From assembly GCA_964016885.1 (NCBI GenBank), contig OZ024748.1:31992001-32056000 (forward strand): 64,000 bases of DNA. Direction: 5' to 3'. Numbering within the stretch: the first letter of the stretch is position 1; each line of letters starts with the position of its first letter. Position numbers and translations under genes: made by a program. The DNA is from Eledone cirrhosa (Eukaryota). Below the pieces are notes generated by a model, which was given only the letters and a program-made list of their open reading frames with translations, was not told the origin of the DNA and did not search any database. Below, in pieces: positions 31,991-33,879 of the stretch.

Positions 31991-32179
31991 AGATAATTTA
32001 ATATATCAACTAACATAAGCGCACAGATGCACGCCCATGCCAGCAAATACACAGGTTATGTCATAGTACCTAGGTGGTTCAATGCAGGAGAATGCAGAAC
32101 AATAATATAAAGGACGTAAAATAAGAAAATATTTTTTTAAAAAAAATTTTAAAAAAATTTTTTACTTACTTAAATTTTC

Positions 32180-32261
32180 ACTCCAACTAATTAGTTTCTG
32201 CAATGGGATAAAGACAGTTACGTAATCCAACTGTCGAGAATTCATTGCGTCATCAGGGAGT
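32180..32261 (-). ncRNA. Type I hammerhead ribozyme (unit 1)
   Basis: acucc-CUGAUGA-c-gcaaug..gacaguu/aacuguc..cauugc-a-GAAA-cuaauuag-UU-ggagu. Confidence 0.8.
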
Positions 32262-32728
32262 CTATTCTCAGTTAAGTCTCCAGGCAATGCGCGGACACTG
32301 GCGGCTCATATAAAAATAATAATAATTCGGTAGATCGAACAGCTTGCGAGGACTGTACCGAAATTCTCACTGCTTCAAGTCAAATGGCCGATTCTAAAGA
32401 ATCAATCACGTGACACAGAGGCTAGTTAGAAGGAATGGGATGGTAAGATGACTGACGCCTACTAACACCCCAAAAAAAATTTTTTTAGAAGTGCTTTTGA
32501 CAAGTTTGCTCGACAAATCAGTGATTTGGAGATAAATATAGATAATTTAATATATCAACTAACATAAGCGCACAGATGCACGCCCATGCCAGCAAATACA
32601 CAGGTTATGTCATAGTACCTAGGTGGTTCAATGCAGGAGAATGCAGAACAATAATATAAAGGACGTAAAATAAGAAAATATTTTTTTTTTAAAAATTTTA
32701 AAAAAATTTTTTACTTACTTAAATTTTC

Positions 32729-32810
32729 ACTCCAACTAATTAGTTTCTGCAATGGGATAAAGACAGTTACGTAATCCAACTGTCGAGAATTCATTGCGTC
32801 ATCAGGGAGT
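32729..32810 (-). ncRNA. Type I hammerhead ribozyme (unit 2)
   Basis: Identical to unit 1. Confidence 0.8.
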
Positions 32811-33286
32811 CTATTCTCAGTTAAGTCTCCAGGCAATGCGCGGACACTGGCGGCTCATATAAAAATAATAATAATTCGGTAGATCGAACAGCTTGCGAGG
32901 ACTGGATTCTATGTACCGAAATTCTCACTGCTTCAAGTCAAATGGCCGATTCTAAAGAATCAATCACGTGACACAGAGGCTAGTTAGAAGGAATGGGATG
33001 GTAAGATGACTGACGCCTACTAACACCCCAAAAAAAATTTTTTTAGAAGTGCTTTTGACAAGTTTGCTCGACAAATCAGTGATTTGGAGATAAATATAGA
33101 TAATTTAATATATCAACTAACATAAGCGCACAGATGCACGCCCATGCCAGCAAATACACAGGTTATGTCATAGTACCTAGGTGGTTCAATGCAGGAGAAT
33201 GCAGAACAATAATATAAAGGACGTAAAATAAGAAAATATTTTTTTAAAAAAAATTTTAAAAAAATTTTTTACTTACTTAAATTTTC

Positions 33287-33368
33287 ACTCCAACTAATTA
33301 GTTTCTGCAATGGGATAAAGACAGTTACGTAATCCAACTGTCGAGAATTCATTGCGTCATCAGGGAGT
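33287..33368 (-). ncRNA. Type I hammerhead ribozyme (unit 3)
   Basis: Identical to unit 1. Confidence 0.8.
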
Positions 33369-33879
33369 CTATTCTCAGTTAAGTCTCCAGGCAATGCGCG
33401 GACACTGGCGGCTCATATAAAAATAATAATAATTCGGTAGATCGAACAGCTTGCGAGGACTGGATTCTATGTACCGAAATTCTCACTGCTTCAAGTCAAA
33501 TGGCCGATTCTAAAGAATCAATCACGTGACACAGAGGCTAGTTAGAAGGAATGGGATGGTAAGATGACTGACGCCTACTAACACCCCAAAAAAAATTTTT
33601 TTAGAAGTGCTTTTGACAAGTTTGCTCGACAAATCAGTGATTTGGAGATAAATATAGATAATTTAATATATCAACTATATATATATATATATATATATAT
33701 ATATATATATATATATACAGTATATATATATATATATATATATATATATATATATATATATATATATATATATATATATATATATAACAAATTCATAAAC
33801 GAAATAAATATATATATATATATATATATATAAATAGTATATATATATATATATAAACAATATGTATATATATATATAT

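Follow-up and report, generated by a model that had tools for sequence, protein, structure and literature searches.

The window analysed here, a 64,000-nt stretch of the 3.0 Gb Eledone cirrhosa assembly, carries near-identical units set head to tail in a (TA)n tract. What kind of element do they form, and how did they come to stand there? The array occupies 31991..33677 on the minus strand, between a left (TA)n target tract at 31372..31990 (the tract itself detected as 31372-32006) and a right one at 33678..33880 (detected as 33676-33880). As described in an initial annotation, it comprises unit 1 (31991..32539, 549 bp), unit 2 (32540..33097, 558 bp), unit 3 (33098..33655, 558 bp) and a 22-nt partial fourth unit (33656..33677, q1-22) joined to the (TA)n. 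Unit 2 is the reference, with q1 = 32540. The 9-nt deletion reported in unit 1 (ggattctat) is present, its placement being ambiguous by one base, and its junction was not found at the other loci compared (L031-L207). Unit 2 differs from units 1 and 3 in three columns, all in a T/A homopolymer. In RNA sense, the 3' (priming) end is 31991 and the 5'-truncated end is 33677. The array is a single arm that was primed at q1 and ran three rounds plus 22 nt.

The units were described as ORF-less, which agrees with a longest stop-free stretch of 51 aa in any frame of the unit 2-3 dimer. The unit has a GC content of 36%, below 50%, possesses no LTR arrangement and belongs to a dispersed multi-copy family. 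The predicted circle is self-paired (z -5.7, 40 shuffles). On every feature that sequence can test, the element looks like a non-LTR retrozyme, and the array appears as one locus of a large lineage of such elements.

Each of the three units encodes one type I hammerhead (32180..32261, 32729..32810 and 33287..33368), as the annotation had counted; the strand, which it left unstated, is minus. The motif reads ACUCC-CUGAUGA-C-GCAAUG...CAUUGC-A-GAAA-CUAAUUAG-UU/GGAGU. Hammerhead 2 combines a C·A at the base of stem II, a two-part stem II and the palindromic stem III CUAAUUAG. The cuts predicted earlier lie at the correct positions (32185/32184, 32734/32733 and 33292/33291) and would release pieces of 549 and 558 nt. 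A plant-type LTR retrozyme, with a type III hammerhead in its LTRs and a 4-bp target duplication, was rejected on the type I motif and the head-to-tail units. An Rfam search of the window at gathering thresholds gave no match, with no hammerhead model reaching threshold, so families with such variants are probably under-counted. The window also holds several short arrays of ~350-bp tandem units (41599-42302, 44368-44561 and 45153-46666), in which the hammerhead core was not found.

Folded by minimum energy on its own, the hammerhead region gives no significant result (z -1.66) and lacks stem III, so the case for the ribozyme rests on covariation. When 26 copies drawn from several subfamilies are aligned, pairing holds in 95.5% of cells, with 73 two-sided changes; slid controls reach 36-47%. 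The covariation score was reached by none of 500 shuffles, a control that relatedness inflates according to a warning from the tool. One stem II pair occurs in all four Watson-Crick forms, and compensatory changes are found in stems I and II across subfamilies. Stem III never varies and is therefore uninformative on selection. Within the core motifs CUGAUGA and GAAA, position 7 of CUGAUGA alone varies. This invariance is partly built in, since the stem III octamer and some core positions were specified in the search patterns; the C·A and the UU/GG that follows stem III were not. All 26 aligned copies agree in the stem III/cleavage sequence, its octamer by the search pattern and its UU/GG independently of it. 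The C·A at the stem II base is kept in 334 of 337 full-length motifs, some of them counted twice in overlapping loci. The mismatch and the GUU site, listed as caveats in the annotation, are on this retention not signs of decay.

The alignment extended to 28 copies supports a lengthened stem I that includes an internal loop; GAGAA in this loop pairs with UUCUC of the stem II internal loop. In unit 2, the predicted loop-loop pseudoknot spans 32785..32818 (minus strand) and joins GAGAAU (32813-32818, stem I internal loop) with AUUCUC (32785-32790, stem II internal loop). Five core pairs are each kept in 25-27 of the 28 rows, one of them changing from G-C to A-U in four rows; the sixth pair is weak (12 of 28 rows). 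A pseudoknot between the two internal loops is thus likely. The compensatory changes in stems I and II suggest that the hammerhead fold is under selection, and its conservation gives good reason to expect an active ribozyme.

The lineage is large. An exact 24-mer of the core, representing the window's subfamily, has 2,714 matches in the genome and its reversed control none, which marks the hammerhead as more than a chance motif. A looser pattern for the lineage as a whole gives 10,941 matches, again with none for the reversed control. Older subfamilies are ~65-85% identical to the window unit and have units of ~500-540 bp. The loci analysed are the 36 top-scoring ones and 58 that hold the first 100 24-mer matches listed, taken in positional order on the first contig. 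Among 59 position-ordered loci, 24 carry one arm, 32 carry two arms inverted head-to-head and three have another arrangement.

The triplication could in principle be an assembly artefact, or the unit could be the pseudo-LTR (pLTR) of an autonomous Penelope-like element (PLE) whose ORF has been lost here. The order of hammerhead, about 80 nt, start site and tail is indeed the geometry of a pLTR, and no sequencing record spanning the window locus was found in an independent run. Against this, a common body follows the array at none of 94 loci, the three units differ in distinct ways, and multimers occur on many contigs. The independent run also contains the unit at very high depth and in many variant contigs, which argues that the family is no artefact. 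We regard both versions of this explanation as extremely improbable. Sequencing runs of three other organisms contain short near-identical pieces, mostly at depth 2-4, and these were not accepted as evidence of spread to other species.

Neighboring parts of the window contain further repeats and coding remnants. LINE-type reverse transcriptase/endonuclease fragments lie at 4079-4873, 14883-16289, 18408-19064 and 56825-58063, with RVT_1 confirmed for 14883-16289. Two C2H2 zinc-finger arrays with an 84-bp period are found on the minus strand at 11100-12608 and 52734-53712, the first of them confirmed by Pfam. Two similar open frames of ~180 aa (38248-38796 and 40220-40771, minus strand) resemble what we take to be a gag-like region of a retrotransposon; the first has no Pfam match.

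The ends of the arms are informative about how the family moves. A survey of the genome had been expected to show variable, circularly permuted start points. Instead, the priming ends are fixed at two sites and only the far ends vary. Of the 154 arm 3' ends (RNA sense), 144 map to q1 (70) or q115 (74), 114 nt apart and almost always against (TA)n. Freely permuted starts were rejected on this count. The far (5') ends are scattered across the unit and peak in AT-rich stretches. All 35 inverted insertions in which both ends could be typed by exact motifs pair one q1 with one q115 (P = 3e-11 against free choice); ends without a motif match do not enter this count. The second start site, with ATATA microhomology to the TA target, is internal in the window array (32101..32109, minus strand; also at 32654 and 33212) and is used at other loci. 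The 114-nt tail between the two inferred start sites of reverse transcription corresponds to 31991..32104 (minus strand) and is repeated in every unit. ATATA is present at four sites per unit, of which only q1 and q115 are regularly used, so microhomology alone does not determine the choice of start. Target-site duplications are unreadable inside (TA)n. Classical twin priming of the L1 type was rejected, as the histogram of 5' ends shows that arms do not stop at the start of the other primer.

Two fixed 3' ends, a tail on one end, 5' truncation, inverted arms and a microsatellite target together make up the signature of an element mobilized by PLEs. The failure of the permuted-start prediction thus ties the element to PLE enzymes. 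The resident autonomous PLEs strengthen this tie, since they follow the same one-of-each rule. Three families in the same genome have two 3' ends each, 40-60 nt apart, and their inverted insertions combine a short with a long end in 27 of the 28 cases with both ends readable, the exception being long/long; at four other loci, fewer than two ends could be seen. We conclude with high confidence that PLE enzymes mobilize the family.

The element itself was rejected as an autonomous PLE, as no ORF with reverse transcriptase and GIY-YIG domains was found joined to the unit at the loci analysed. Within 300 nt, the 5' flanks of 35 single arms (one of which had no flank) gave no match to PLE proteins, nor do these flanks form a common body. 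The window does carry the 3' fragment of a very abundant autonomous PLE (835-1524, minus strand; GIY-YIG, PF01541, E 6e-4). This family has about 34,000 first-look candidates in the genome, open frames of more than 1,100 aa elsewhere, a short hammerhead of its own and two 3' ends ~60 nt apart. To the left of the array's TA tract, at about 31276-31370 (minus strand), the translation suggests a pLTR fragment of the same family; the fragment and the array have a TA target in common.

Candidates for the partner were sought by several routes. A genome search in which 3' ends were read detected no homology to the unit in the family of the 835-1524 fragment or in three others. All four have other hammerheads, and the three with readable ends have tails of 40-60 nt. 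None of these four families, nor several fragments, matches the element in hammerhead, tail length or hairpin; the genome holds more families. A hammerhead pattern with shorter stems gave 41 matches, mostly deletion copies of sister subfamilies, with a PLE ORF near none of the 30 loci fetched. At one locus (L079:3686), the 3' end of a Neptune-like PLE abuts a retrozyme arm in the same sense with no TA between. This junction is possibly a template switch and, as a single case, a weak lead to the partner. The Neptune-like PLE has a short tail and no such tail hairpin, and other repeats also neighbor arrays through the common TA target. Nested in the same TA tracts (loci L031-L243) are five or more other hammerhead families and some ten PLE families, one of the latter having a hammerhead-like motif with a UUGAUGG core.

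The tail contains a hairpin (32074..32102, minus strand) of the form GUUC-stem-AUUGAACCAC that is common to two other retrozyme families. Searches with tail-hairpin patterns found these families and no PLE. Both consist of ORF-less hammerhead repeats (483 bp and 457-469 bp) and share the hairpin, with covarying stems and tails of ~105-115 nt. A hammerhead of the 483-bp family lies in the window at about 22180-22270 (minus strand), with a CCGAUCGG-like stem III, the same tail hairpin and a 115-nt tail. The third family has 503 motif matches, and one inverted insertion (L352-L353, G000:C1:156.426-156.439 Mb) carries 19 + 10 motif copies. On this sequence evidence, the hairpin is a likely candidate for the signal bound by the PLE protein.

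Whether the enzyme reads a circular or a linear template can be judged from the arrays themselves. Of 156 arms, 51 span two units or more, up to a length of 5,055 nt, and young arms reach nine units; the enzyme therefore crosses the cut site freely. The 5' ends do not pile up at the predicted cut (2 of 155 observed, 1.7 expected). All 157 young units have the exact sequence across the cut, and 122 of 123 junctions at q1 are likewise exact. These seamless junctions largely exclude a scheme in which the enzyme jumps between successive cut linear monomers, leaving one at its 5' end and entering the next at its 3' end, or in which units insert one by one into the ATATA of an existing copy. Template jumping is known for non-LTR reverse transcriptases, and nicking of an element's own AT-rich pLTR is allowed by work on a PLE protein (PMC11167929). 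The missing 5' end pile-up and the variants shared among units of one array are further points against this scheme, and we consider it highly improbable.

Among young arrays of at least three units, 18 of 28 have a variant that is present in every unit, in several cases across both inverted arms, and only three of 28 have variants in some of the units. Opposite arms differ by a median of 0, compared with 0.9% for different loci. Another explanation is later growth in place from PLE-type insertions of one or two units, by unequal crossing-over or slippage as in satellites. Variants in subsets of units occur in L031, L056 and L121, and the rough 2- or 3-unit periodicity in L056 and L121 looks as if produced by local duplication (period-2 and period-3 sharing). 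Local amplification after birth from a pLTR has also been proposed (10.64898/2026.07.22.740005). Long arrays are nevertheless common among copies 98-99% identical to the window unit, and in 31 of 34 single-subfamily arrays (three two-subfamily loci were left out) the pattern of variation is that of a star, without any variant common to a subset of units. Local growth is an improbable explanation.

A more serious competitor is PLE-driven insertion from a long, uncut, linear read-through transcript, with the hammerhead only trimming or acting slowly and any circles being by-products. In work on an anole PLE, unprocessed RNA was the dominant substrate and hammerhead mutants were still inserted (PMC11167929), and the weak stem III, the C·A and the GUU could permit slow cutting here. 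Strictly private array-wide variants are few (five, in 4 of 37 arrays), most being shared with other loci, so that linear source arrays that are young and homogeneous could account for much of what is seen; in L031, one variant occurs once per arm. A linear template would, however, shorten arrays by 5' truncation in each generation, yet young arms have nine units and the sister family reaches 19 + 10 copies. A variant in all units would require a bottleneck of one unit followed by re-expansion. Variants of single units are almost never mirrored in the opposite arm (one case), and by our reading the two arms of the 29-copy array cannot be brought into line in their variant patterns in any register. 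In that array, one variant is scattered over both arms in 6 of 27 units, which counts against a single monomer circle as well, because such a circle does not simply predict it. The scatter is at odds with both a clean monomer circle and a mirrored linear template; speculatively, gene conversion or the repeated misreading of a single modified base might account for it. We judge the linear transcript unlikely, although it is the strongest of the competing explanations.

A circular template is favored with moderate confidence. The retrozyme identity proposed at the outset stands, the family being dispersed through the genome as ready-made multimers to which no ORF is attached; several genomic signs point to the circle, and the permuted starts fell away. 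The best explanation, which we hold with nearly the same moderate confidence, is a non-coding hammerhead tandem retroelement that is inserted into (TA)n by a borrowed PLE reverse transcriptase-endonuclease reading repeatedly round a circular RNA monomer. Arrays would be transcribed on the minus strand, the hammerheads would cut, probably as dimers via the palindromic stem III, and the monomers would be ligated into circles. A PLE protein, likely a dimer, could then bind the tail hairpin and nick both strands of the palindromic (TA)n. Priming would start from one nick at q1 and from its counterpart at q115, in both cases by ATATA/UAUAU pairing over 5 nt, and each enzyme would circle the template for a variable distance. 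Joining of the cDNA ends to each other would give an inverted array, and joining to the target a single arm such as the one in the window. In its most complete form, this reading takes the arrays as a record of double-primed rolling-circle reverse transcription by one PLE dimer on one ribozyme-made circle, with two fixed sites, inverted arms of up to ~19 units, a tail hairpin as minimal portable cargo signal and an active variant ribozyme with obligatory C·A and pseudoknot. We put this combined form forward tentatively, as somewhat more likely to fail in some part than to hold throughout.

The basis for how animal retrozymes move has so far been co-occurrence with PLEs and pLTR similarity in frogs. 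The family described here supplies countable genomic evidence for the use of PLEs, namely two start sites, the one-of-each rule and the same rule in resident PLEs, and thereby both motifs that point to a partner and a footprint of the mechanism. As a substrate for experiments it is short, free of ORFs and young (copies 98-99% alike), its start sites are defined and its hairpin is a candidate for binding. The formation of PLE tails and inverted repeats becomes testable in vitro, as does the question of whether retrozyme circles are a real transposition intermediate. If double-primed rolling-circle synthesis is true, it would explain the long-unexplained tail and inverted repeats of PLEs, and the hairpin would make any circular RNA a PLE cargo.

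The literature covered, which included few subscription papers and had the supplements of PMC7229834 and of the 2026 preprint outside its scope, yielded no description of this family or of end pairing, twin priming or end structure in retrozymes. Literature on octopus or cephalopod hammerhead ribozymes with Penelope likewise yielded no description of the family. The unit was initially thought to be longer than known animal retrozymes. Its 558 nt do exceed the 170-400 nt given by Cervera & de la Peña 2020 (PMC7229834) and fall within the 51-972 bp reported by Li, Clavereau & Pollet 2026 (bioRxiv 10.64898/2026.07.22.740005). In the latter work, one of nine Xenopus retrozyme dimers cleaved in vitro and eight did not.

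The element resembles metazoan non-LTR retrozymes in its ORF-less tandem units with one type I hammerhead each, GC below 50%, weak palindromic stem III, self-paired predicted circle and co-occurrence with PLEs. Like axolotl HHR_Amex2, it has a mismatch at the stem II base, which is U·U there (PMC7229834) and a conserved C·A here. It differs from the metazoan retrozymes described in the covered parts of these sources in its GUU site, long two-part stem II and likely Watson-Crick loop-loop contact. Fixed dual priming ends, inverted two-arm insertions and TA targeting are likewise features of this family that the covered parts of PMC7229834, PMC7761336 and 10.64898/2026.07.22.740005 do not describe for retrozymes. 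A 2020 review proposed PLEs as likely helpers and saw in the repeats no conserved motif pointing to a partner (PMC7761336), whereas here a tail hairpin is common to three families. The circle here is a prediction from genome sequence. Among hammerheads in general, pseudoknot contacts are predicted in about 40%, and U·U at 10.1-11.1 is tolerated (Perreault et al. 2011, PMC3088659). The present motif shares with these a base-paired contact that links stem I to stem II, predicted from sequence, and a 10.1-11.1 mismatch; it differs in that the contact joins two internal loops, the mismatch is C·A and the score lies below the Rfam threshold.

With EN+ PLEs the element shares partial tandems, 5' truncation, inverted 5' copies, a tail at one end, microsatellites as targets and a hammerhead that lies ~80 nt upstream of the first start site. 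It differs in carrying no ORF and in its 114-nt tail, compared with a 30-40 bp extension, usually at one end only, in PLEs (Craig et al. 2021, bioRxiv 10.1101/2021.04.23.441226) and 40-60 nt in the resident PLEs measured. A PLE protein studied in vitro makes nicks in both strands of AT-rich DNA and extends them, starting at two internal sites of the RNA between which the tail lies (Frangieh et al. 2024, PMC11167929). Hammerhead cleavage was unneeded for insertion of that element, uncut RNA being the main template. The anole element starts without homology, whereas both start sites of the present family have 5-nt homology to the TA target.
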